Part shown: positions 2,684 to 40,567 of the stretch, piece after piece
Position numbering within the stretch: position 1 is the first letter of the stretch
How the letters are laid out: every line of letters starts with the position of its first letter
DNA from: an uncultured Chloroflexia bacterium
GTDB lineage: Bacteria > Chloroflexota > Limnocylindria > Limnocylindrales > CSP1-4
Length of the DNA: 64,000 nucleotides
Assembly (NCBI GenBank): GCA_963801445.1
Contig: CAWDEW010000010.1
Location: 21,338-85,337, forward strand
Direction of reading: 5' to 3'
Program-made: the position numbers and the translations under genes
The notes under the pieces: generated by a model
What the model was told of the DNA's origin: nothing
Database searches by the model: none
Seen by the model: the letters and a program-made list of their open reading frames with translations, nothing else

Positions 2684-4405
2684 GTGTCCGCCCCGTCCGC
2701 GCCAGATCCAGCCGGGCTCCTCGCCCCGCTCCGCGGCAGCGTCCGCCGCGCCCTCGAGGCCGCCTGGGAGCGCGCGATCGTCGCGGGCGCGCTGCCGCCG
2801 CTCGGCACGGCCGACCGGCCCGCGGTGGAGATCGAACGGCCCGCCAACCCCGAGCACGGCGACCTCGCCTCGAACCTGGCGATGAAGCTGGCCCGGCCCT
2901 GCCGGATGGCACCCCTGAAGGTCGCCGAGGCCCTCGCGGCCGAGCTGGCGGCCGACGTCGGCCGCCCCGGGGGCCCGGTCGGCGCGGTCAGCGTCGCGGC
3001 TCCCGGCTTCCTCAATCTCCGCGTCGCGGATGGGGCGCTCGAGGACCTCGTCGCCGGGATCGTGGCGGATCCCGCCGCCTGGGGCCGGGTCCGCGCGACG
3101 ACCCCTCGCCGCGTGAACGTGGAGTTCGTCTCCGCGAACCCGACCGGGCCGCTCCACATCGGGAACGCCCGCGGAGCGTTCGTCGGCGACCTCCTGTGCC
3201 GCGTCCTCGAGGCGGCCGGCCACCATGTCACGCGCGAGTACTACTTCAACGACTTCGGAGCCCAGGTCCGGAACCTCGGGGCGTCGGTGGTCGCGATCCA
3301 CCGCGGCGAGCCGCTTCCCGAGGAGGCCTACCGGGGCGCGTACGTCCACGACCTGGCCCGGGAGGTCCCGGCCGACGTCTGGAGCGCGGGCGAGGCGGCC
3401 GACGCGGCGGGAGCCGCTCACGATGCCGCCTGGGTCGTGGGCGAGTGGGCCTCGGAGCGCGTGCGGGCCGGCATCGAGGCCTCCCTGGCCCACCTCGGCG
3501 TCCGCTTCGACGTCTGGAAGTCCGAGAGCTCCCTGTACTCCGAGGGATGGGTCGCGCGGGCGGTGGAGCGGCTCCGTGCCGGCGGCCACCTGTACGAGCA
3601 GGACGGGGCGCTCTGGTTCCGCTCCACGGACTTCGGTGACGACAAGGACCGGGTCGTCCGCAAGTCGAGCGGCGATTTCACGTACTTCGGATCCGACGTC
3701 GGCTACGTCGTCGAGAAGTTCAGCCGACGGTACGACCGCCTGGTCTACATCTGGGGCGCCGACCACCACGGCACCGTGGCCCGGCTCCGGAATGCGGCCG
3801 GCGCCATGGGCTTCGAGCGCGACGCAGTGGAGGTCCTCCTGATCGCCTGGGTTCGCTTCGTCCGCGACGGCATGGAAGTCTCGATGTCCAAGCGGGCCGG
3901 CGAGTTCATCACCCTCGACGAGCTGCTGGCCGAGATCGGCGTGGACGCGGCCCGCTGGTTCTTCGCCGCCCGGGGGCACACGTCCGGGATCGACTTCGAC
4001 ATCGAGCTGGCCAAGAAGCAGTCTGCCGAGAATCCCGTCTATTACGTGCAGTACGCCCACGCCCGGATCGCCTCGATCCTCCGGAAGGCCGCCGAGGCCG
4101 GGCTCCAGCCCGCGACGTCGCTGGAGGGGTGGCTGGCCGGCGGTCCCGAGGCGGCGCTCGCGCGCGCCCTGGCCAGGTTCCCGGAGGTCGTGGAGGACGC
4201 GGCCGCGGCCGAAGAGGCGCAGGGCGTGACCGCGTTCGCGACGGACCTGGCGACGCAGTTCCATGCCTTCTACCGCGACGCCCGGGTCGTGGACCCGGCT
4301 GAGCCCGAACGGTCGCGGGCCCGGCTGGCCCTCGTGCTGGCGGCGCAGCAGACGCTGGCCAACGCCCTCGCGCTCCTGGGGATCGCGGCACCCGAGGCGA
4401 TGTAG
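2684..4405 (+). CDS. argS: Arginine--tRNA ligase
   Basis: VEFVSANPTGPLHIGN (HIGH motif), MSKRAGEF, YVQYAHARIASI; GTG 2684 preceded by GGAGG. Confidence 0.97.
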   Translation: MSAPSAPDPAGLLAPLRGSVRRALEAAWERAIVAGALPPLGTADRPAVEIERPANPEHGDLASNLAMKLARPCRMAPLKVAEALAAELAADVGRPGGPVGAVSVAAPGFLNLRVADGALEDLVAGIVADPAAWGRVRATTPRRVNVEFVSANPTGPLHIGNARGAFVGDLLCRVLEAAGHHVTREYYFNDFGAQVRNLGASVVAIHRGEPLPEEAYRGAYVHDLAREVPADVWSAGEAADAAGAAHDAAWVVGEWASERVRAGIEASLAHLGVRFDVWKSESSLYSEGWVARAVERLRAGGHLYEQDGALWFRSTDFGDDKDRVVRKSSGDFTYFGSDVGYVVEKFSRRYDRLVYIWGADHHGTVARLRNAAGAMGFERDAVEVLLIAWVRFVRDGMEVSMSKRAGEFITLDELLAEIGVDAARWFFAARGHTSGIDFDIELAKKQSAENPVYYVQYAHARIASILRKAAEAGLQPATSLEGWLAGGPEAALARALARFPEVVEDAAAAEEAQGVTAFATDLATQFHAFYRDARVVDPAEPERSRARLALVLAAQQTLANALALLGIAAPEAM

Positions 4406-29420: not shown

Positions 29421-30071
29421 GTGACCAGGCACGACGCGGAGCGCAAGCGCAGGATCCTCGACTACATCGCGGCCATGATCCGGGCGACCGGCGTGCCGCC
29501 GTCTGTCCGGGAGATCGCACGCGCCGTCGGCCTCGCCTCCACGTCGGCGGTCCATCACCACCTCCGGGCTCTCGAGGAGGACGGCTACCTGGAACGGGGC
29601 GCGGCCCAGTCGCGCATGATCCGCCTCACTCCCAAGTCCGCGCTGTTGATGGGCCTCTCGTCGGAGCTGACGCCCCAGGGGATGGCATCCGAGGCGCACA
29701 TGCTCCCGGTGATCGGCGAGATCGCCGCAGGCGGGCCAATCGAGGCCTACCAGAACCCCGAGGAATACCAGGCGATCCCGGACCTGCTGGCTCCTTCGGG
29801 CGACGCCTACCTCCTCCGCGTCCGCGGCGACTCCATGATCGAGGCCCACATCGCCGACGGTGACTACGTCGTCATCCGCCCGCAGCAGACCGCCCGGAAC
29901 GGGGACATCGTGGTCGCCCAGGTCGAGGAGAACGCGGTCACGCTGAAGCGGTTCTTCCGGGAGGAAGGGAAGGTTCGCCTGCAACCCGCGAACCCCGCCT
30001 ACCCGCCCCAGTTCTACGACGACGTGCGCGTCCAGGGCAAGCTGATCGGGGTCATCCGCCGGCTCGACTGA
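29421..30071 (+). CDS. lexA: SOS repressor LexA
   Basis: PPSVREIA wHTH, IAAG cleavage site, GDSM (Ser), TLKRF (Lys). Confidence 0.97.
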   Translation: MTRHDAERKRRILDYIAAMIRATGVPPSVREIARAVGLASTSAVHHHLRALEEDGYLERGAAQSRMIRLTPKSALLMGLSSELTPQGMASEAHMLPVIGEIAAGGPIEAYQNPEEYQAIPDLLAPSGDAYLLRVRGDSMIEAHIADGDYVVIRPQQTARNGDIVVAQVEENAVTLKRFFREEGKVRLQPANPAYPPQFYDDVRVQGKLIGVIRRLD

Positions 30072-30072
30072 G

Positions 30073-30147
30073 CCGTCCACAGTCAATCCACGGCGCGGGT
30101 CGATTGCCCGGGGCTGCCGGTGGACAACTCGCGGAGTTCGTGGACAT
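30073..30147. promoter_or_regulatory. Four degenerate DnaA-box-like 9-mers upstream of dnaB
   Basis: ccgtccaca 30073, caatccacg 30084, and inverted ttgtccacc 30119-30127, atgtccacg 30139-30147. Confidence 0.45.
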
Positions 30148-30215
30148 CCCGCTTCCCTGGCCCGCTCCGGTCGGCGACCATGACAGGAGCCCTCGCCCCC
30201 GAATCCGGAGTTCGC

Positions 30216-31577
30216 GTGTCCCTCGATCGCCTGCCGCCCCAGAACATCGAGGCGGAGCAGTCCGTCCTCGGCGCCCTCCTGATCGACCGCGACGCGATCA
30301 TCGAGGTCGCTGACGTCCTGAAGTCGGACGACTTCTACCGCCAGGCGCATGGCCGGATCTACGCCGCCATGATCGACCTCTGGGAGCGGCGCGAGCCGAT
30401 CGACATCGTGACGGTGTCGGAGGTCCTCGAGCGCAACGGCGATCTCGAGCAGGTCGGCGGCAGGGCCTACCTGTCGTCGCTCTCGGAGCAGACGCCGACT
30501 GCCGTCTTCGCCTCGCAGTACGCCCGGATCGTCGAGCGCAAGTCCGTCCTCCGGAACCTCATCGCTGCCGCCGGCCGGATCGCGGGGATCGGGTACGAGG
30601 ATGGTCCCGAGGTCCAGGAGGCGATCGACCGCGCGGAGTCGGAGCTGTTCGCCGTCTCGGAGCGGCGCCTGTCGGCCGGCTTCTCGCCGCTCAAGGCGCT
30701 GCTCCACGAGGCATTCGACAGGCTCGACTACCTGCACACGCATCGCGGAGAGATCAGCGGGATCCGGACCGGGTTCCCCGACCTCGACACGCTGACCGCC
30801 GGGCTCCAGCCGTCGGACCTGGTCGTCCTGGCTGCCCGCCCGTCGGTGGGCAAGACGAGCCTTGCCCTGAACATCGCCGAGTTCGCCGCCATCCGCAACA
30901 CGCCGCGCAAGGCGGTCGGGATCTTCAGCCTCGAGATGAGCAAGGAACAGCTCGTCCTTCGCCTGCTCAGCTCCGTCGGCAACATCGACAGCCAGCGCCT
31001 GCGCTCCGGCTTCCTCGACGAGATGGACTTCGTCGGCGTCAGCCGGGCGATGACCGGCCTCTCGGAGGCCCCGATCTACATCGACGACACGCCGAACATC
31101 AGCACGATGGAGCTCCGCACGAAGGCCCGCCGGCTGCAGGCGGAGGTCGGCCTGGACCTCGTCATCGTCGACTACCTCCAGCTGATGCAGGCGTCCTCGA
31201 CCAGCCGCGACGCCAACCGGGTCCAGGAGGTGAGCGAGATCAGCCGCGGCCTCAAGGCCCTTGCGCGCGAGCTGAAGGTGCCCGTGCTGGCGCTCTCGCA
31301 GCTGTCGCGCCAGCCCGAGATGCGCGAGTCGAAGGAGCCCCGCCTCTCGGACCTGCGCGAGTCCGGCGCCATCGAGCAGGACGCGGACCTGGTGCTGTTC
31401 CTGTGGCGAGAGAAGGAACGGGCGGGCGAAGAGGTCGACGCCGACGGCGAGGTCGTGAAGCTCCGCCTGGCCAAGCACCGCAACGGCCCGACCGGCGAGG
31501 TCGACCTCTGGTTCAAGAAGTCGCAGACGCGCTTCGTCAGCTATGCCGGGGAACGGTTCGCGGGCGCAGCACCGTAG
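30216..31577 (+). CDS. dnaB: Replicative DNA helicase
   Basis: LPPQNIEAEQSVLG, ARPSVGKT, VDYLQLM, SDLRESGAIEQDAD. Confidence 0.98.
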   Translation: MSLDRLPPQNIEAEQSVLGALLIDRDAIIEVADVLKSDDFYRQAHGRIYAAMIDLWERREPIDIVTVSEVLERNGDLEQVGGRAYLSSLSEQTPTAVFASQYARIVERKSVLRNLIAAAGRIAGIGYEDGPEVQEAIDRAESELFAVSERRLSAGFSPLKALLHEAFDRLDYLHTHRGEISGIRTGFPDLDTLTAGLQPSDLVVLAARPSVGKTSLALNIAEFAAIRNTPRKAVGIFSLEMSKEQLVLRLLSSVGNIDSQRLRSGFLDEMDFVGVSRAMTGLSEAPIYIDDTPNISTMELRTKARRLQAEVGLDLVIVDYLQLMQASSTSRDANRVQEVSEISRGLKALARELKVPVLALSQLSRQPEMRESKEPRLSDLRESGAIEQDADLVLFLWREKERAGEEVDADGEVVKLRLAKHRNGPTGEVDLWFKKSQTRFVSYAGERFAGAAP

Positions 31578-31749
31578 CCGGCGCTCGCCGTCGCCGCCCG
31601 GGCGCGCCCTGGCTGCCCGAGCTCGGTCTCGGCGCGTCTCGTCGGGCAGGACCGGCCGGTTCCGGCGCCGCTCCGTGGTCTGAGCTGAGTCCGGACCAGT
31701 CTCGGCAGGCGAATCTGCGCATGCTCTGCGCGCCGTCCGCGTCGGCCCA

Positions 31750-31778
31750 TTGCCAGCCCGCGGGGCCGTCCCTATAGT
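31750..31778 (+). promoter_or_regulatory. Sigma70-type promoter TTGCCA-17-TATAGT
   Basis: -35 at 31750-31755, -10 at 31773-31778; followed by an about 110-nt hairpin-rich leader. Confidence 0.6.
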
Positions 31779-31893
31779 GCCGCGAACGGTTGCGAATTGG
31801 TGACATGACCGGCAGCCGGGCCCGGATCGCCGGGCACCAGCCGGCCCCGGGAGTCGCACCCGGATCCACCGAGGGAGAGGGTTGGCACCAGCC

Positions 31894-32190
31894 GTGTACG
31901 AAGACCGGACCCTGCAGTGTCGCGACTGCGCGGAGAGCTTCATCTTCTCGACCGGGGAGCAGGCGTTCTTCGCCAGCAAGGGGCTCCAGAACGTGCCCCA
32001 GCGCTGCCCGACCTGTCGAGCGGCTGCGCGGCGCGCTCGCACGACCGGCGGACCCCGCGAGTTCCACGCCGCGGTATGTGCCTCGTGCAGCGGCCAGGCC
32101 GTCGTCCCCTTCGCCCCACGATCGGACAAGCCGGTCTACTGCAGCGCCTGCTTCGAGAAGATGCGACCGGCACCCTCGGCGCTCGCCTAG
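31894..32190 (+). CDS. Zinc-ribbon / CxxC-x17-CxxC domain protein
   Basis: EDRTLQCRDC..FIFSTGEQAFF..KG...P.RCPTC and VCASC...VPF.P...KPVYCSACF. Confidence 0.9.
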   Translation: MYEDRTLQCRDCAESFIFSTGEQAFFASKGLQNVPQRCPTCRAAARRARTTGGPREFHAAVCASCSGQAVVPFAPRSDKPVYCSACFEKMRPAPSALA

Positions 32191-32239
32191 ACTCCGTCAA
32201 CCGGCAGACGGACTCGGCCGGTTGGCACGGAGGAAACGA

Positions 32240-32446
32240 ATGGGCGTGATCATCATCCGCGAGATGGTCGGGACCAGCCCGGCTTCGTGGAGCGACGCGG
32301 CGCGCCAGGCCGTCGCCACCGCTTCACGGACGGTCCGCAACATCCGGACCGTGGAGGTCGTGAAGTCCACGGCGATCGTCGAGAACGGGGAGATCGTCGA
32401 ATACCGCGTCGATCTGAAGATCGGCTTCGAGTACGAGGGGGCCTGA
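32240..32446 (+). CDS. Dodecin-family protein
   Basis: EMVGTSPASWSDA..QAV..AS.TVRNI...EYRV.LKIGF; GGAGG RBS. Confidence 0.85.
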   Translation: MGVIIIREMVGTSPASWSDAARQAVATASRTVRNIRTVEVVKSTAIVENGEIVEYRVDLKIGFEYEGA

Positions 32447-32542: not shown

Positions 32543-35500
32543 ATGGCTCACGCGGGCTCCGACCTCACCCTCCGCACCGGTCGCACCGCCGCCGTTCCCG
32601 ACGGCTCGCGATCGCTCGCGCCCTCGCAGCGCGAGCCCCGCCTCGTGGCCGTCGGGCCGGGCCCAGCGATCCCGGACCAGTCGCCCGTGTTCGGCTCGAC
32701 GATGCAGGTGCACGAGTACCCCGTCCAGGACGGCAAGATCCAGCCACCGCTCCTCCCCGAGGAGACGCTCCAGCGCGACCGCCTGCTCGACTGGCTGCAC
32801 GCAAAGGTCCGCGGGCGGCTCGTGCTGATCCTCGCGGACGCCGGCTACGGCAAGACGACGCTGCTGGCCGACTGGACGCGTCGGACGAGGGTGCGAGCGC
32901 TCTGGTATCGCCTGGACGAGCACGACCGGGATTGGCCGGTGTTCATCCGCCACATCGTCGCGGCCGGGCGCGAGATCGACCCGGGCTTCGCACCCCAGAC
33001 GGAGGCGCTCCTGCGCGAGCTGGGCACCCCGCTCACGGATCGCCCGACCGTCGTTCGGACCCTCCAGGGAGAGCTGCAGGCGTGGGCGACCACCGGAACC
33101 GCGCTCGTCCTGGATGATTGGCACGCCGTCGACGACGTGCCCGAGATCCGCGACATCGTCCGGGAGCTGATCCTCCGCGGCCCGGATCGGCTGACCGTCG
33201 TCATCGCCTCCCGGCGACGCCCCACGCTCCCGGTCGCTCGCCTGCGCGCGATCGGCGAGGCCGCGGAGATCAGCACCGACGATCTCCGATTCGACCGCGA
33301 CGAAACCGAGCGTCTCTTCCGCGACAGCTACAAGCACCCGCTCGAGCGAGACCTGCTCGACGATCTGGCGCGCACGACCGACGGCTGGGCCGCGACGCTG
33401 CGCCTCGTCGAGTCGGCCGTTCGCGGCCGACCGCGCGAGGAGGTGCGCGCGGTGATCCGCAGCCTGTCCGGACGCCACGGCGACCTGCACGACTACCTGG
33501 CCGAGGAGGTCGTGGGGCGCATGTCCCTGGAGCAGCAGTCGTTCGTCGAACGGTGCTCGATCCTCGGGGTCGCGACCGCCGAGCTCGCCGCCGTCGCCGC
33601 CCAGGTCTCGGGCGATGAGGCGCGGTCCCACCTCGACGCCGCCGAGTCCTACGGCCTGCTCGCGCGCCGCGGTCGGACCGGTCAGGCCGGCCGACTCTTC
33701 CACCCGCTGGTCCGCACGTTCCTGGAGGGAAGGCTGCAGGACGCCGTCGGCGACGCGGAGGTCCGGGCCACCCACGCGCGGGTCGCCCGCGCTGCCGAGG
33801 CAGTCTCGTGGGCCGTCTCCGGTCACCATTACGCCGCGGCCGGCCTCAACACCGACGTCGCGCGCGTCCTCGCCGCCGCCGTCCCGACCATCCTCGGATC
33901 GGGCGCTCACGAGGAGGCCCGGCATCTTGAAGAGTACCTAGGCGGATCCCACCCAGGCGCGTGGTCCTACGTTCTGGAGGCGCACCGGAAGCTCCGGCTC
34001 GGCGATGTCGCCGGGGCGATCAACGCGGCTAACGCCATTGCACCTCTCCTAGAGTCCGGCGACATGTCCGTTAGCCGTCCCGTCGCGGCGACAGCTCGGA
34101 TGAATGCCTACTACGGCGCCGGCGAGTTCGAGATGGCATACCTCGAGGCCAAGTCAATCGAGTCGGATGGCAGCGAAGAGATCCCCGCGGAGCTTGCCCA
34201 GTCTGTCGTACTTCTGACCGAGTCGATGGTCGATGGTGATTTGAACGTGACTCTCCGGACGTGTCGCGAATTGGCGCGACGGATGTCGCTGCGGGGGCTC
34301 CACCACTACGAGGGGATCTCGTGGGTTAACGCGGGCTGGATCTGCCGAGTCCTGTTCGACTCCGCTGGAGCGAGAGAAGCCGGGCTCAGGGCCGTCGAAT
34401 GTCTGAGCTTCCACATCGTCCGGCCCTGAGATCAGTACCGCGCTCGCGGTCGCGGCGTGGGCCATGGCCCACTCGGGAGATACCAGCGGCGCAGGAGCCA
34501 CTCTGGCGAGAAGTCTGGAAGGTCAGTTCTGGAGCGCTCGGTTCGAGAGCCTTGTCGAGGCCGCCGACGTCCACAGTCCATATGGAGACGCGACCGAGGC
34601 GCGGCGGTTGCTCGACGACGCGGCCCGGGTTCAGGCGCCGAACCCGCGGCAGCGGCTGTTCCACGACTTGGTCAATGGCGAACACCTTGTTCGGGAGGGC
34701 GACCCGAAGGCGGCGCTTTCGATGCTCGACACCATCGCACATGGCACGCCAACCGGTTACCCGGGCTTCTACGTTCGCCTAGAGCTCGCGAGAGTCCACG
34801 CCCGCGTCCGTCTTGGCTGCCTCTCACGCGAGGACGCCGAGAAGGCAGAGCGGCGAGCCCGGCAGCAAGGGGCGGAGGCGGTGTTACCGCTCCTGCACGG
34901 CTTGATTGCCGTCGCCTGGGACAAGGCAGCACATCTTGACTCGCGAATTATGAGACTCGCTGAGACAGAGCCGGCGCTCGTGACCACGTTTGCCGAGGCA
35001 ATCCTGGACCGCAGCGACAGCTTGTCGGAATCCACTATGTCTGAGCTCGCGCGTGTCGCCCAAGTATTCCCCGAGCGATGGCGGCATGCGGCGAGATGCT
35101 CGATCGCAGATCCCGCGCCGAGCGTCCAGGCCAAGGCCGGATTGCTCCTCGAGGCAGTCGGGGATCGATCGGATGTGGCCAGGCTTCGGGAGCTCAGCCG
35201 ACAGCTTAGGGCGCCCTTTGCGAACCCGGACCTTGGGCGCAAGCTCGCGAGGCGCGTGGCCGACCGCGTAGTGGTTGAGGACCTCGGGCGAGTGTCGGTC
35301 CACGTTGGATCCCGAACCATCTCTGGCAGTTCCATTCGCCGAAAGGCTCTGGCACTCCTCTGCTTTCTCGTCTCTCAAAGAGGCTTTGCTGCCTCAAGAG
35401 ATCAGGTCCTGGAGGCAATGTGGCCCGAGTTTGAGCCCGATCAGGCCCTCAATTCCCTACACCAGACGGCGTACTTCCTCCGCCGCGTATTCGAGCAGCC

Positions 35501-35976
35501 ATTCAGTGAGGACACATCGCCCGGGTATTTGCGCACCTGACGGTGAACTCATCTGGCTCGACAGCGAATTGGTGCAGTCACAGAGCAGAACCTTCCGGGA
35601 TCTGATCACAAGCCAGGGTGGAGAAGACGATCCGATCCTCGTGGACAAGATCACGCTGCTCTATGGTGGCCGCTTCGCTCTCGACTTCCTCTATGACGAG
35701 TGGGCGCGGCCTGCGAGAGAGTCGATGCACACCCGCTACGTGGAGGTGGTAGAGCGGTCAGTCACGTCCGATATGAGGTCCGGCCACTTCGGGAGGGCCA
35801 TCACGATCGCAGGACGGGCTCTGGAAGTGGACCCGAGCTTGGACGAGATGGAGAAGAACCTGGTCAAGCTCTACCAGCTGTCCGGCGCACATCGTGCCGC
35901 GGCTGAGCAGTACGCGCATTACGCAGAGACCATGCGCGAGTTGGGCCTCGAGGTCCCGCCGCTGGATCTTCTTTGA
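32543..35976 (+). CDS. Large MalT-like STAND transcriptional regulator: NTPase, helical/TPR-like sensor, C-terminal wHTH plus BTAD; frameshifts near 34410 and 35537
   Basis: KIQPP..LQRDRLL, ADAGYGKTT, LVLDDWH, GWAATLRL, DYLAEEV; C-terminal LGRVSV..RKALALLCFL..SRDQVLEAMWP and LY.G.F..D..YDEW..AR; single-base removals join three ORF-track pieces (about 1140 aa). Confidence 0.85.
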
Positions 35977-36026
35977 GGGGATCGGTAATCTACGAGCGGT
36001 CCAGTGTGCCTAGGTAGGGTTCCGTA

Positions 36027-36056
36027 TTGACCGAGTAGGAGAACAGTACCTACTGT
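36027..36056 (+). promoter_or_regulatory. Promoter TTGACC-18-TACTGT with inverted repeat AGTAGG-N9-CCTACT
   Basis: TTGACC 36027-36032, AGTAGG 36034-36039, CCTACT 36049-36054, TACTGT 36051-36056; UUCG hairpin CTAGTAC-TTCG-GTACTAG at 36068-36085. Confidence 0.6.
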
Positions 36057-36099
36057 CGCGATGACCACTAGTACTTCGGTACTAGGAGGCCGTGATAGG

Positions 36100-36179
36100 T
36101 TCTTCGGGCGCGATGATGCCCGTCCCTGAACTGGGCACTTAGGGGACGGACGGAGCGGCTAGTGCAACCGACCGGCGAA
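36100..36179 (+). ncRNA. Cyclic di-GMP-II riboswitch aptamer
   Basis: P1 TTCTTCGG/CCGGCGAA; ATGATG kink-turn strand; stem CCGTCCCT/AGGGGACGG; loop GGGCACTT pseudoknotting with AGTGC; GAG; TAGTGCAACCGACC; CGC/GCG pairing where the C. acetobutylicum aptamer has AAC/GUU (recalled consensus). Confidence 0.88.
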
Positions 36180-36200
36180 TAAGCAGGTCGGTTTTCGTGT
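36166..36200 (+). terminator. Intrinsic terminator overlapping the riboswitch 3' end
   Basis: AACCGACC (36166-36173) / GGTCGGTT (36186-36193) stem followed by TTCGTGTT. Confidence 0.7.
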
Positions 36201-36292
36201 TGGGGGGTCACGGAAACCCATTGGAGGGCACACGATGGGTCCCGAGTTCAGCGTCAAGCCCTGGTAGCACGGCAAGCAGCGAGTCTTATCGA

Positions 36293-36385
36293 ATGATGAA
36301 GACGCGATTGCTACAGGTCCTCGCGACCATGGCAACCCTCGCCGCCGCCGTGTTGGCTGGTGGCGCGTCGCTGAGGGGTTTCTAG
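36293..36385 (+). CDS. 30-aa putative signalling peptide precursor MMKTRLLQVLATMATLAAAVLAGGASLRGF
   Basis: Basic N-terminus, hydrophobic core, AGGA, short polar tail; sole ORF between riboswitch and HD-GYP gene. Confidence 0.75.
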   Translation: MMKTRLLQVLATMATLAAAVLAGGASLRGF

Positions 36386-36459
36386 GTACCGAAGTCCCAT
36401 TCCGGCCCGGTACGCTCCCGGCTAGCATCATGACGGGTAGCCGCTGACGCCGAGGACGG

Positions 36460-37840
36460 ATGTCTAGATCCCTCAAGCTATACCTCACGGCGCTCGTGAC
36501 CATAGGCGGTCTTGTGATCGTGGTCACGAGCGTTGTGATTCAGCCCGACCAGCGAATCGCGATCGACCTTTCCGGCTCGAGCGCGGTCAATGTTGCGCTC
36601 GGGCTCGGCTTTTGGACCGTCGTGACTCTCGCCGCCTCGGCGTTCCCTGTCACAATGCCCCGCGGCTCCGTCGTGAGTACGTCGATCGCGCCGATGGTGG
36701 CGGTCATGTACCTCGGAGGTCCAGCGGCTGCTGCGATCGTGGCGACCCTTGGGACGACCGAATTGCGAGAGCTGCGAGGTCGCGTCCCCTGGTATGGAAC
36801 GCTGGCAAACCATATCGGGGTCGCTGTTCCGGCAATAGCCGGTGCCGCGGTGATTCGTTGGATTGGCGGGCCGGGTGCGCCCGGGTTGCACGATTTCGCG
36901 GCGACCCTGTTGGGCGGGCTGGTGTTCCATTCGATGAACATCACGCTCTGCCGCCATCAGTGTTGCTCTGCGCCGCGATGAAGGCGTGGCTGGAGTCGTT
37001 CTCGCCGACCTTCGACTCTACTTCCTGTCGGGACTCGCGATTGTCCCTCTGGCTTGGTTGATGGCCCAGCTCTACAACATCGCCGGCGTCGGCTGGTGGG
37101 CGGTACTGCTCGTTGTTCTTCCTGTCTACGTGATGCGGCTAGCCTTGCGACAAGTCGTCGAGATGCGGGAGATGTTCACCCAGACCATTGGGGCGCTCGC
37201 CGGGGCGGTGGATGCGCGGGATGTCTACACGTCGAACCACAGCCATCGGGTCCAGACGATCGCGGTGGACATCGGGCGCGTGATGAAGCTTCCGGAGCAC
37301 GAGATCGAGGCCCTGGAGTGGGGCGGCCTGCTCCATGACATCGGGAAGATCGGGGTGCCGGACAGCGTCCTGCTCAACCCGGGGAAGCTCACCAAGGAAG
37401 AGCGGGCCTCGATGAACGCGCATCCCGTGAAGGGAGCCAAGATCGTCGCGAAGGTCGAGAAGCTGGCGCCGGAGCTGCCGATCATTCGCCACCACCACGA
37501 GTGGTACAACGGGTCCGGGTACCCGGACCGGTTGATGGGCGACGAGATCCCCAAGCTCGCCCGGGTCCTGCACGTCGCCGATGCTTTCGAGGCGATGATC
37601 GCCCAGAGACCCTACCGGATGAGCCCGTTGACGCATGAGCAGGCGATCGCTGAGCTGCGCAAGTTCTCGGGGATCCAGTTCGACCCGGTCGTCGTCGACG
37701 CCTTCGTCAAGACGAAGTGGGCCGACGGGTTCGGGGATTTCAACCGCTCGCACCCGATGCGAACCGTGCCCTACCTCGCCCAGGCCGCGAGCCGGATGGC
37801 GCCGCCGCCCGGGGACGCGGCTCCAGCCGACGCCTCCTGA
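36460..37840 (+). CDS. Membrane-anchored HD-GYP c-di-GMP phosphodiesterase; +1 frameshift near 36950
   Basis: About 6-7 N-terminal TM helices; HSHRV, LHDIGKIG, HHHEWYNGSGYP, ARVLHVADAFEAM; GAGGA RBS; dropping one T in ctc-t-gcc gives ITLAAISVALRRDEGVAGVVLAD. Confidence 0.92.
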
Positions 37841-37852
37841 GCTCGACCGCGA

Positions 37853-39880
37853 GTGCTGTTCGCGGCTCTGATCGTCGGGTTCCTGGCCGGGATCGCGGCC
37901 GGCGGCAAGGTCGACAACCTTCTCGCGGTCCGCCTGCGCTGGGCGCTGGTGATCTTCGGCGCGGTCGCGCTCCGCCTCGGCACCGAGGCCGCGCTCTCTC
38001 GAGGCATCGCCGTCGCCGACCAGCTGCGGGTGCCGCTGCTGGGTGCCGCGTACCTCGTGCTGGCCGTCGGCCTCTGGGTGAACCGATCGCGCCCGGGGAT
38101 GACCCTGGCCCTCGTCGGGATCGGTGCCAACGCGTTCGCGATCCTGGTGAACGGCGGCTACATGCCGGTCTGGAGCGCCAGCCTCATCGCGGCGGGCTTC
38201 CCGGCCGACGAGCCGCTCTCGGCGATCCACAAGGTCCTCTCGGCGGCCGACGTGAGCTTCCTGACGTCGGCGGGGCCACTGGGCGACATCATCCCGATCG
38301 GCCTGGCGCCCCTCCGGAACGTCCTCTCGATCGGCGATGTGCTGCTGGCCGCGGGCCTGGCCTTCTTCCTGTTCGCGAGCCTGGTCCGCCGCCCGGGCGA
38401 GCTGGAGACGCTCGCCGAGCGCGTCCGCACGGGGCCGCTCCCGGCCCGCCCCGTCGCCCTCGGCGGAGTGGTCGCAGACGAGGCGTCACGCACGGTACGG
38501 CCCGGGACCGGGCTGGCCGGCGGGGTGCTGGACGCGGCGTCGGCCATGGACCGCCCGATGATGCTCGGCGGCTCGGGGGCCGGGATCGCCGTGCCGTCGC
38601 CGACCCGGGCCGTGGTGCTCCGCCGGCCGGTCGGGATCCGGGAGCGGGCGCTGCGCCACCCGTACGTGCGGCTGGCGTTGAACGGACCCTTCACCGCGCT
38701 CTGGACGGGCCAGGTCGTCAGCCTGTTCGGGGATCGGGTACACCAGATCGCCCTGGCCGCGCTGGTGCTCGGGACGACCGGGTCGGCGCTGGCGGCGGGC
38801 CTCGTGTTCGCGGCTGCCGCCCTCCCGAACCTCCTGTTCGGTCCGTTCGCCGGCGTGCTCGTGGACCGCTGGAACCAGAAGCACGTGATGATCGCCAGCG
38901 ACCTCATCCGGGCCGCGATCGTGCTGTCCATCCCGGCCAGCACGGCAATGAACGTCACCCTGGTCTATCCGCTGGTCTTCGTGCTCACGACCGTCTCGAT
39001 CTTCTTCCGCCCCGCGCGGACCGCCGTGATCCCGCGCCTCGTGCGGGAGGACGAGCTGACCGCCGCGAACTCCGCGACGTGGATCGGCGAGACCCTCGCC
39101 GATGTCGCGGGCTACCCGATCGCCGGGCTGTTCGTGGGGGTCCTCGGCGGTGCGGTGGCGGTGGCCTTCTGGGTCGACTCGGCGACCTACGTCGCGTCGG
39201 CCGCGCTGATCGCGGTGACGGCCATCCCGCCCGTGGTGCGGACGCTGGCTGATGCCGGCAAGGGCATCGCGGGCTTCCGCCGTGACCTGGTCGCCGGCTG
39301 GACCTTCCTCCGTCACGAACCCGTCCTGCTCGCGAACACGCTCCAGGCGATCGTCGGGCAGGCGACGATCGGCGTCGCGATCACGCTCGTGCCCGTCTTC
39401 GCCCGGGACGTCCTGAGGGATTCCTCGCTCCCGTGGGAGACCACCTACGCCTACATGGAGGCGGTCCTCGGGATGGGCAACCTGATCGGCGGCTTCTTCA
39501 TCGGCCTGCTGGGCGCCCGGCTCGCGAAGGGGCGGATGGTGATCGTCGGCTACGTCGCCTACGGCCTGCTCGTCGCCGGCTTCGCATTCGCCGGCAACGT
39601 GGCCATCGCGATCGGGCTCTCGTTCGGGATGGGGATCGCGAACATGGTGTTCGTCATCCCGACCCAGACGCTCTTCCAGGAGCGAACCCCGAACGAGCTC
39701 CTGGGGCGAGTCGTGAGCTTCCGCTTCTCGGCGGTCTTCGGCGCGATGACGCTCGCGATGGCGGTCGGGGGGATCCTCGGCGAGGCGTTCGGTGCGCCGC
39801 TCGTCCTCGGGGCGTTCGGCCTCCTGACCGCGTTCGCCGGGCTGGCCGGCACGGCAAGTCGCCCACTGCGCGACGCGTAG
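37853..39880 (+). CDS. DUF5317 domain fused to an MFS transporter
   Basis: N-terminal GIGAN..ILVNGGYMPV and LGDIIP...VLSIGDVLL (DUF5317 hallmarks); C-terminal FTALWTGQVVSLFGD, GVLVDRWN, LLGRVVS (12-TM MFS). Confidence 0.85.
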   Translation: MLFAALIVGFLAGIAAGGKVDNLLAVRLRWALVIFGAVALRLGTEAALSRGIAVADQLRVPLLGAAYLVLAVGLWVNRSRPGMTLALVGIGANAFAILVNGGYMPVWSASLIAAGFPADEPLSAIHKVLSAADVSFLTSAGPLGDIIPIGLAPLRNVLSIGDVLLAAGLAFFLFASLVRRPGELETLAERVRTGPLPARPVALGGVVADEASRTVRPGTGLAGGVLDAASAMDRPMMLGGSGAGIAVPSPTRAVVLRRPVGIRERALRHPYVRLALNGPFTALWTGQVVSLFGDRVHQIALAALVLGTTGSALAAGLVFAAAALPNLLFGPFAGVLVDRWNQKHVMIASDLIRAAIVLSIPASTAMNVTLVYPLVFVLTTVSIFFRPARTAVIPRLVREDELTAANSATWIGETLADVAGYPIAGLFVGVLGGAVAVAFWVDSATYVASAALIAVTAIPPVVRTLADAGKGIAGFRRDLVAGWTFLRHEPVLLANTLQAIVGQATIGVAITLVPVFARDVLRDSSLPWETTYAYMEAVLGMGNLIGGFFIGLLGARLAKGRMVIVGYVAYGLLVAGFAFAGNVAIAIGLSFGMGIANMVFVIPTQTLFQERTPNELLGRVVSFRFSAVFGAMTLAMAVGGILGEAFGAPLVLGAFGLLTAFAGLAGTASRPLRDA

Positions 39881-39982
39881 GGGCGGCCCTCCGCTACACT
39901 CAGCGGCCGGAGCGCACCTCGCCTCGCGAGAGCAGCGCGCACGTCGCTGGACGGCGACGACCACGGAGGAGTGACGCACGCG

Positions 39983-40567
39983 ATGACCGAGCGGGACGAC
40001 CGCGCGCCGGGCGACGAGCCCGAGGAGGCGCAGGACGGCGAGGCGCTCGAGGCCGGGGCCGAAGGCGAAGGTGAAGGCGAAGGCGACGAGGGCATCGACG
40101 AGACGGCCCCCGTCGATGAGACGGGCTGGGAGGCGGAGGACGCCGCCGTCGAGCAGGCGAGCGCCGGCGAGCGCCCCCGGCCGACCGGCCGCTCGCGGCG
40201 TGGCATGCCGGTCGTCGCGCCCGCACCCACCGCCTCCGACGTCGCGGTCCACATCGACGACCGGGTCTCCAAGGGGTTCGTGATCGCGGTCGCGGCGCTG
40301 TTCGTGCTGGCCTTCCTGTACCCGCTGTTCCTGGGCCACGGCGGCCTCTTCACGCCGATCGTCACGCCTGCTCCGACGGCCGTGCCCGCGATAGAAACGC
40401 CACCCCCGACCGCATCGCCTGCGCCCTCGGCAACGGCCTCCGCGTCGCCCGCCGTCTCGGGTTCGCCTGCAGCGTCGGCGGCGGCGTCCACGTCGCCGGC
40501 TCCATCTGCCTCGGCGACCGCCTCCAGGTCGCCGGCGCCGTCCCCGTCGGGTTCCAAGGCTCCCTAA
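39983..40567 (+). CDS. Bitopic membrane protein: acidic N-terminus, one TM, Ser/Ala/Pro/Thr-rich C-terminus
   Basis: Translation; GGAGGA upstream. Confidence 0.65.
   Translation: MTERDDRAPGDEPEEAQDGEALEAGAEGEGEGEGDEGIDETAPVDETGWEAEDAAVEQASAGERPRPTGRSRRGMPVVAPAPTASDVAVHIDDRVSKGFVIAVAALFVLAFLYPLFLGHGGLFTPIVTPAPTAVPAIETPPPTASPAPSATASASPAVSGSPAASAAASTSPAPSASATASRSPAPSPSGSKAP

Follow-up and report, generated by a model that had tools for sequence, protein, structure and literature searches.

A conserved 29-residue peptide gene, coupled to DUF5317 and MASE9 sensors across phyla, points to an undescribed signalling module linked to cyclic di-GMP

The stretch of DNA analyzed here (the window) comprises 64,000 nucleotides from an uncultured Chloroflexia bacterium of the GTDB class Limnocylindria (contig CAWDEW010000010.1, positions 21,338 to 85,337), with a G+C content of 71.8%. 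Between positions 32543 and 39880, its plus strand carries five co-oriented elements in a row, namely a gene for a STAND/BTAD regulator, a class II cyclic di-GMP (c-di-GMP) riboswitch with a terminator, a gene for a short peptide, a gene for a membrane-sensor HD-GYP phosphodiesterase, and a DUF5317-MFS fusion gene. All five are found where the original prediction had placed them. Comparison with other genomes reveals that the peptide, DUF5317 and the sensor domain MASE9 are genomically coupled across phyla, and that the direct target of the riboswitch, as read from gene arrangement, is the peptide. Taken together, these data point to an undescribed signalling module, for which we propose a mechanism below.

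The same order of elements is found in 58 related loci from Limnocylindria, which is far beyond chance. These loci are syntenic all the way from the gene for DnaB to that for an isoaspartyl methyltransferase; the order within this class alone thus says little about function, and evidence was therefore sought outside Limnocylindria. Using stand-alone DUF5317 homologues and their genomic contexts, as well as two genome scans, we obtained 42 non-orthologous DUF5317 loci, from Chloroflexales, Anaerolineae, Ardenticatenales, Thermomicrobiales, Thermoleophilia, Bacillota, Ignavibacteriales, Fraserbacteria, Bipolaricaulota and a deltaproteobacterium. The peptide is encoded on the same strand in 30 of these 42 loci, with five of the other 12 being cut by contig ends, and it lies beside DUF5317 in at least 10 lineages. 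When a profile of the peptide was compared with about 12,000 small open reading frames (ORFs), each of the 76 significant matches was located within 3 kb of DUF5317, and in contexts anchored on the peptide DUF5317 is next door in five out of six. A MASE9 sensor usually adjoins the pair. The gene orders vary and include peptide-sensor-DUF5317, DUF5317-peptide-sensor, sensor-DUF5317-riboswitch-peptide, and divergent arrangements. Linkage that is kept while the order is shuffled is a classical sign of functional coupling. The layout that the original prediction had likened to that of agr, i.e., a peptide, a multi-pass membrane protein and a membrane sensor, therefore recurs across phyla, in shuffled order.

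In the window, the sensor is a MASE9-like plus HD-GYP phosphodiesterase (36460-37840, plus strand), in which the HD_5 domain (PF13487), at 130-132 bits, retains intact HDIGK and GSGYP motifs. Once its frame is repaired, the N-terminal domain scores 18.2 bits against the MASE9 model (PF20972), for which the cut-off is 24.3 bits; the orthologues in L004 and L013 score 27.5 and 34.5 bits, respectively, and L059 scores 40.6 bits. The N-terminal domains of the kinases and of the HD-GYP proteins in the module are homologous (hhalign probability 97.2%, E = 4e-11, 176 columns). The output domain is HD-GYP in 12 unique loci and HD-GYP-(GAF)-GGDEF in L103, L107 and L126; in Chloroflexales it is a HisKA kinase (14 loci, or 16 with the peptide-anchored L131 and L132). 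That is, the output domain varies between lineages, while the peptide and DUF5317 are constant. The earlier proposal that the output is the c-di-GMP level rather than a histidine kinase does not hold throughout, since in Chloroflexales the module feeds a histidine kinase. As to the sensor domain itself, the authors who defined MASE9, Galperin and Chou, took the pattern of its conserved residues as an argument that a ligand is bound within the membrane (bioRxiv 10.1101/2021.11.05.467447). A MASE9 identity was also considered for the N-terminal domain of GAF-GGDEF-EAL proteins, and was rejected because the profile comparison was not significant. In the kinase-type module of Chloroflexales, a conserved cytoplasmic protein of about 216-220 residues, which has no Pfam match, is always encoded between DUF5317 and the peptide (L068, 2342-3001; L069, 981-1631; L131, 4021-4683; L132, 4121-4780).

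The peptide gene of the window (MKTRLLQVLATMATLAAAVLAGGASLRGF, followed by a stop codon) is located at 36296-36385 on the plus strand. It encodes 29 residues, in which a basic N-terminus and a single hydrophobic helix are combined with the invariant run A-G-G-A and the tail S-L-[K/R]-G-F. The gene itself had been correctly predicted; the length of 30 residues given for it results from a second ATG, at 36293. With a strict tail pattern, the ORF is recognized in 42 of 48 intergenic regions, always with 29 codons, and in other regions remnants of it are visible, apparently frameshifted. Among 38 distinct sequences, the entropy of the first, second and third codon positions is 0.96, 0.50 and 1.49, respectively, and in codons 21-24 (A-G-G-A) the first two positions are invariant while all third bases are used. 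TAG, TGA and TAA all occur as stop codons, the ratio of nonsynonymous to synonymous polymorphism (pN/pS) is 0.47, and a GGAGGA site is present upstream of many copies. The check proposed originally, i.e., whether homologous loci have a small ORF in common ahead of the HD-GYP gene, thus revealed an ORF that is present and evolves as coding sequence. Given the fixed 29 codons, the third-position variation, the three stop codons, the Shine-Dalgarno sites and the existence of about 90 clusters of homologues, we conclude on sequence grounds that this small ORF is a genuine gene.

These clusters (E <= 1e-3, best 2e-11) were collected from 5.8 billion proteins with a peptide profile whose alignment was headed by a 62-residue ORF of the window. 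Most contain proteins of 29-45 residues, and some of the longer ones appear to be over-extended calls. The named clusters are called "hypothetical" in the source and none has a Pfam domain; nor do Pfam and NCBIfam contain a model for the peptides. Across lineages, the design consists of a basic N-terminus, about 20 hydrophobic residues, and the tail A-[AGS]-G-A-x-x-[K/R]-[W/F], as exemplified outside Limnocylindria by L-A-[AS]-G-A-x-x-[KR]-W; in Limnocylindria, the C-terminal Trp of the family is replaced by Phe. The distribution of charge and hydrophobicity suggests a single-pass membrane peptide whose N-terminus would be inside and whose C-terminal tail would be outside. The run of small residues at the end of the helix, A-G-G-A or S-G-A-G, would be consistent with helix-helix packing in the membrane.

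The anatomy of the leader that precedes the peptide gene was derived from an alignment of the intergenic region, of about 480 nt, in approximately 42 related loci. A c-di-GMP-II aptamer (RF01786) spans positions 36097-36182 on the plus strand, scores 61.8 bits where the gathering score is 53.5 (E = 2.4e-11), and matches model positions 1-84 of 84; the element is thus a member of this family. It is followed by a terminator-like hairpin at 36166-36202 on the same strand (AACCGACC ... GGTCGGTT, then the U-tract UUUUCGUGUU), which is present in both the minimum-free-energy and the centroid folds. In the alignment GGTCGGTTTTCGTG is conserved, and the stem is longer in the relatives. A simple terminator scan of the leader gave no call at 36166-36202, because the loop of the hairpin is 12 nt long. 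The 5' arm of the terminator, AACCGACC, lies within the 3' side of the aptamer; that is, aptamer and terminator form a competing expression platform. Since the two share bases, ligand binding should prevent termination, and we predict that c-di-GMP binding makes this riboswitch an ON switch. The riboswitch is detected in 43 of the 58 related loci, and 10 of the 15 loci with no match lack the upstream region.

The arrangement is not confined to the window: in at least eight lineages, the peptide ORF comes directly after a c-di-GMP riboswitch. The class II riboswitch is found 5' of the peptide in the window, in 43 Limnocylindria loci, in L101 and in L105, and a c-di-GMP-I-GGC riboswitch occupies this position in L063, L067, L099, L100 and L102. 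Thus, two different riboswitch classes converge on the same family of 30-residue peptides. In L067, L099, L100 and L101 only the peptide is located behind the riboswitch, with the enzyme and DUF5317 genes lying upstream, and L063 has an MFS-DUF5317-GGDEF/EAL operon from which the riboswitch, together with two peptide genes, diverges. Because the peptide is alone behind the riboswitch in L067, L099, L100 and L101, it appears to be the component that c-di-GMP controls. The riboswitch had been described as one element in a row; it is that, and the comparative loci add that its direct target is the peptide. In L102, a metagenome-assembled genome (MAG) of Anaerolineae, two c-di-GMP-I-GGC riboswitches with identical scores stand in tandem before the peptide gene (117-208 and 323-414). 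L096 carries a c-di-GMP-I-GGC riboswitch of 75.9 bits on the minus strand (3467-3551), convergent with the DUF5317 gene, that controls a secreted-looking protein of 185 residues outside this peptide family.

No Rfam match was obtained 5' of the peptide in the Chloroflexales loci. The peptide gene is preceded there by a conserved RNA block (GCCCGAAGCGGAGCGGAGGGGACCC ... AGCGAAGAAAGGGGTCTCC-ATG; L068:3060-3192, L069:1862-1994, L076:6419-6551, and 12 more), with a predicted anti-Shine-Dalgarno helix and some compensatory changes. This block is a candidate for a new riboswitch, at the place where other lineages carry c-di-GMP riboswitches.

The leader of the window has further conserved parts. A promoter-like block at 36027-36056 (plus strand) consists of TTGACC as the -35 element, an 18-nt spacer and TACTGT, with the conserved TAGGTAGGGTT located 5' of it. 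The block is kept in about 40 loci, the relatives having TATAGT and a spacer of 17-18 nt, as read from the alignment only. A consensus promoter scan of the window leader made no call, because the -10 element is weak. The repeat-like TAGGTAGGGTT, upstream of the promoter, is a candidate binding site for a regulator of the SARP type. At 36068-36085 (plus strand), the 5' leader contains a perfect and conserved hairpin, CTAGTAC-TTCG-GTACTAG.

A mini-ORF overlooked in the original prediction lies at 36223-36267 on the plus strand, including its Shine-Dalgarno site (GGAGG). Its 10 codons, starting with the ATG at 36235, encode MGPEFSVKPW. Of 48 intergenic regions, 40 contain it, each time with 10 codons, and it has the consensus M-A-P-E-x-x-h-K-G-[W/F/Y] before the stop. 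The third base of the Pro3 codon is free, Lys8 is invariant, and the last residue is kept aromatic through TGG, TTC or TAY codons. This mini-ORF is probably translated. In loci where both ORFs are intact, its stop codon precedes the ATG of the peptide by 0-33 nt, and it may couple translation into the peptide ORF. The K-G-aromatic-stop ending of the mini-ORF family mirrors the tail of the peptide. Downstream, the alignment places the HD-GYP start about 75-90 nt after the 29-codon ORF. In several orthologues the stop codon of the HD-GYP gene abuts the DUF5317-MFS frame, which suggests that the two genes belong to one operon.

The DUF5317-MFS fusion (37853-39880, plus strand) is encoded by an intact ORF, with DUF5317 at residues 26-173 and MFS_3/MFS_1 at residues 279-665. 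DUF5317 (PF17248) scores 83 bits against a cut-off of 25, and MFS_1 and MFS_3 score 110 and 92 bits, respectively; the protein is therefore a genuine member of these families. The invariant residues of DUF5317, namely N93, N100-G-G-Y-M-P105, D145 and S159-x-G-D162, are all present. The family comprises 7,923 clusters at 50% identity (E <= 1e-3). In an AlphaFold2 model with a mean predicted local distance difference test score of 95, DUF5317 forms five helices and a beta-rich loop, residues 100-159. Given the positive-inside rule and the C-terminal fusion to an MFS domain whose N-terminus is cytoplasmic, this loop is predicted to face the outside, i.e., the same side as the predicted tail of the peptide. 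A Foldseek search with the model returned no neighbor in the PDB with E < 1, and AgrB is not among the matches of DUF5317 members. The possibility that DUF5317 is an LspA-like aspartyl peptidase (Peptidase_A8, signal peptidase II) had been raised by a source annotation, "lipoprotein signal peptidase", and by a lipobox-like L-A-G-G in the peptide. Weak Peptidase_A8 matches were indeed obtained for 7 of 44 DUF5317 members (best E = 0.0016), but this candidate was rejected: the hhalign probability against LspA is 1.8%, and neither the sequence profile search of the PDB nor the Foldseek search with DUF5317 returned LspA. The E. coli LspA sequence used as the probe was validated solely by its match to LspA entries in the PDB. 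Natural fusions of the peptide to DUF5317 were likewise considered and rejected, the N-terminal extensions of 10 representatives resembling over-extended ORFs.

The first gene of the row, that of the STAND/BTAD regulator (32543-35976, plus strand), encodes AAA_16/STAND, TPR-like repeats, a winged helix (Trans_reg_C) and BTAD, distributed over three frames. The regulator has the makeup of a SARP or AfsR-like protein, i.e., a winged helix-turn-helix (wHTH) plus BTAD module with an NTPase domain and TPRs; in comparison with AfsR, the domain order is reversed, with the NTPase N-terminal and the SARP module C-terminal. Homologues were found only in the orthologous loci of Limnocylindria (including L105/L125) and in L093/L122, and are absent from the other lineages with the peptide. 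In L093, from Anaerolineales, a 31%-identical STAND-TPR-BTAD protein is encoded directly upstream of a peptide-peptide-DUF5317 array. Because it is absent from most lineages carrying the module, the regulator is not part of the conserved cross-phylum core; its role in some lineages may be to switch on the promoter or to detect the peptide. In L127 (1-4857), an unrelated HTH_3-NB-ARC-TPR STAND protein precedes a gene of the peptide family; its neighbors are BrxC/BrxD-like and DEAD-helicase genes, which hints at a defence context.

Alignment by tblastn to the intact orthologues of L001 reveals that the regulator frame (1174 residues in L001) is broken in the window by single-base frameshifts at about 34407 and 35525, and the HD-GYP frame by one at about 36949, with seamless junctions in each case. 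The window copy of the HD-GYP gene is thus interrupted, whereas its orthologues are single ORFs. The regulator orthologues in L001 and L004 are single ORFs of 1174-1198 codons from stop to stop, and in short-read and other MAGs the regulator is a single ORF of about 1150-1200 codons and the HD-GYP gene one of 465-480 codons. The genes around the frameshifts, i.e., those for DnaB, DUF5317-MFS and the methyltransferase, are unbroken. Because the junctions are clean single-base ones and similar breaks occur in related long-read MAGs, sequencing error is likelier than decay. Among public read sets, no run contains the sequence around the three frameshifts, with at most 9% of its words being matched.

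Upstream of the regulator, the region 29421-32446 encodes LexA, DnaB, a CxxC zinc-ribbon ORF (31882-32190) and a dodecin-like ORF. The comparison with related loci covered two of these, DnaB and the dodecin-like one, and both recur there in the same order. Downstream of DUF5317-MFS, 39971-40567 encodes a protein of 198 residues that is rich in Ala, Pro, Ser and Thr, contains one hydrophobic segment and lacks a Pfam match; it is kept at this place only in the synteny of Limnocylindria.

How might such a unit work? The reading that we adopt, tentatively and with somewhat less than even confidence, is that of a c-di-GMP-induced operon whose peptide and DUF5317 act on MASE9 and raise the activity of the HD-GYP enzyme, in a negative feedback. 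This operon would run from the promoter, the leader hairpin and the class II riboswitch through the 10-codon mini-ORF and the peptide gene to the genes for the MASE9-HD-GYP enzyme and DUF5317-MFS. At high c-di-GMP, the aptamer would hold the 5' arm of the terminator and permit read-through, a direction deduced from the sequence. The 29-residue product would then insert into the membrane as a single-pass peptide and, together with DUF5317, which has its invariant residues in the loop predicted to be outside, provide the input for MASE9, thereby switching the attached HD-GYP enzyme. Rising c-di-GMP would thus yield both its own phosphodiesterase and the activating ligand or partner of this enzyme, and in other lineages the same input would drive GGDEF proteins or kinases. 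We predict, rather than observe, in which direction the switch works, how the peptide is oriented, which protein it binds, and whether the enzyme is activated by it. Several observations weigh against this scheme. Around twelve of the DUF5317 genes there is no peptide gene and no MASE9 domain, and five Limnocylindria loci have the peptide with no riboswitch. Three peptide loci contain GAF-GGDEF-EAL proteins whose N-terminal domain is not traceable to MASE9. In the window, the phosphodiesterase and the regulator are frameshifted, and the local copy may be non-functional. The contact of the peptide is itself predicted, and gene neighborhood cannot separate MASE9, DUF5317 and MFS as its partner. 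Lastly, the conserved extracytoplasmic tail and the linked MFS would suit an exported product equally well.

An exported product of this kind would be a diffusible signal, in the manner of agr or Phr. DUF5317 would cut the peptide near A-G-G-A and free a tail of 5-7 residues (e.g., SLKGF, or xKW in other lineages), MFS_3 would export or re-import it, and MASE9, and in some lineages the STAND-TPR regulator, would detect it, so that neighboring cells would learn each other's c-di-GMP state. This possibility, which we regard as doubtful and in which the maturation and export by DUF5317-MFS put forward in the original prediction are conjecture, draws on the conserved three-part layout and on the fact that conservation within the peptide is highest in the tail predicted to be outside, preceded by a small-residue run that reads like those at signal-peptidase sites. 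The invariant Asp, Asp, Ser and Asn in the outward-facing loop of DUF5317 would be candidates for the cutting. Moreover, MFS_3 is fused or adjacent to DUF5317 in several lineages, peptide genes in Limnocylindria, L093 and L127 have a gene for a TPR-containing STAND regulator immediately before them, and tandem peptide paralogues occur in L063, L089, L093, L107 and L126. However, pheromones usually diversify with their receptors, whereas this tail is constant across the class and beyond; DUF5317 has no detectable relation to known peptidases; many loci, for example those of Chloroflexales, have no MFS at all; no oligopeptide permease (opp) genes were seen in the loci examined; and the STAND gene of L127 may serve in defence and not in sensing a peptide. 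The fully specified version, i.e., a diffusible peptide signal licensed by c-di-GMP, with DUF5317 as a new outward-facing maturation enzyme and MASE9 as the receptor, seems to us unlikely. If it were true, populations would share their sessile or motile state, as set by c-di-GMP, through a form of quorum sensing unrelated to agr, ComQXP and RRNPP and present in many phyla.

The remaining explanations dispense with a signal. The peptide could be an accessory subunit comparable to KdpF or AcrZ, or the cargo of a DUF5317(-MFS) transport or envelope function that is switched by c-di-GMP, with the MASE9 enzymes being merely co-regulated. The peptide and DUF5317 are indeed the tightest pair, L092, L093 and L129 have both with no MASE9, and the DUF5317-MFS fusion is a physical link to a transporter; but most loci have no transporter, and the neighboring sensor keeps its MASE9 input while the output domain changes, a signature of signalling input and not of chance co-regulation. 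We consider this explanation rather improbable. That the peptide is a membrane-active effector, i.e., a toxin or surfactant like the phenol-soluble modulins and type I toxins, made at high c-di-GMP with DUF5317 and MFS providing export or immunity, would agree with its size, its hydrophobicity, the absence of a classical cleaved domain and the dedicated transporter nearby in some lineages, and control by c-di-GMP would suit a biofilm or surface function. Yet a conserved and specific tail motif, with a small-residue run that never varies, speaks for binding to a particular protein, one would not expect a toxin to be linked so constantly to a sensor domain, and no antisense or antitoxin feature was seen; we assign this idea little weight. 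We find it very hard to believe that both small ORFs are purely regulatory leaders, in which the translation of the mini-ORF and of the 29-codon ORF matters, through coupling or attenuation, and not the products. Both ORFs do lie in a long leader behind a riboswitch, and the mini-ORF has a strong Shine-Dalgarno site and a stop 0-33 nt ahead of the next ATG. In L067, L099, L100 and L101, however, no co-oriented module gene follows the peptide ORF, and those of L063 are encoded on the other strand; in addition, the helix character is kept as the sequence changes, and one tail motif persists across phyla and gene orders. For the 10-codon mini-ORF alone, a leader function may still apply.

Returning to the feedback operon, if that scheme is correct it provides the first functional context for DUF5317 and a new class of riboswitch target, in the form of a microprotein through which the c-di-GMP level would act back on c-di-GMP enzymes, or forward on kinases. 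As the original prediction anticipated, we found no characterized system of this architecture in Pfam, NCBIfam or the literature. No literature on DUF5317 was found, that on MASE9 was limited to the description of the domain, and none was found that links c-di-GMP riboswitches to such a peptide.

Membership in the agr, ComQXP, RRNPP or LspA families is not supported. Like the module, agr is a linked cassette of a small peptide, a multi-pass membrane protein of about 180-190 residues and a polytopic sensor, and in Chloroflexales, where the sensor is a histidine kinase, the likeness extends further. There is, however, no homology: DUF5317 has no AgrB match and the peptide no conserved Cys for a thiolactone, so that the module lacks the AgrB/AgrD pair. 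Its sensor domain is MASE9, its output is often HD-GYP or GGDEF, and its gating relies on a c-di-GMP riboswitch rather than on an autoregulated promoter of the AgrA type. The comparison with the ComQXP layout does not hold, since no polyprenyl-synthase domain of the ComQ type, as in ComQXPA, is present in any locus examined. With RRNPP systems (Rap/Phr, PlcR/PapR, Rgg/SHP, AimR/AimP), the loci of Limnocylindria and L093 share the order of a TPR-like regulator and then a short peptide gene, and the size and basic-then-hydrophobic design of the peptide recall SHP and ComS. The proposed RRNPP layout is nevertheless not supported, because the regulator is a STAND ATPase of about 1100-1200 residues, with wHTH and BTAD at its C-terminus, and is absent from most lineages of the module. 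RRNPP receptors, in contrast, are TPR proteins of 300-450 residues with no NTPase domain, and receptor and peptide are inseparable neighbors, which those of the module are not. The module also lacks pherotype-like diversification, and no Opp importer was seen in the loci examined.

With regard to the mechanism proposed here, the closest likeness is to small modulators such as MgrB-PhoQ, SafA-PhoQ, PmrR-LpxT and AcrZ-AcrB, in which a single-helix peptide of about 30 residues, induced by a pathway, feeds back on a polytopic partner. These modulators are unrelated to the peptide in sequence and act alone, with no third component like DUF5317; to our knowledge, neither riboswitch control nor an effect on a c-di-GMP enzyme is known for any of the MgrB, SafA, PmrR or AcrZ type. 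Among c-di-GMP riboswitch regulons, the combination of a class II aptamer with a terminator platform is shared with class II ON switches such as that of pilA1 in Clostridioides difficile; class I switches include Vc1, Vc2 and Bc2. The known targets of c-di-GMP riboswitches are adhesins, pili, flagella and regulators, whereas the first and sometimes only product of the module is a conserved peptide of about 30 residues tied to c-di-GMP enzymes. Finally, in its domain architecture the phosphodiesterase of the window, with its MASE9-like N-terminal domain, matches TM1467 of Thermotoga maritima and HdgA and HdgB of Streptomyces venezuelae, which are MASE9-HD-GYP proteins. The study of HdgA and HdgB in Streptomyces observed no phenotype and suggested that activating signals were missing under the tested conditions (PMC6205966). 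If the feedback scheme is correct, the peptide and DUF5317 would be the first candidate input for MASE9 sensors, including HdgA and HdgB.

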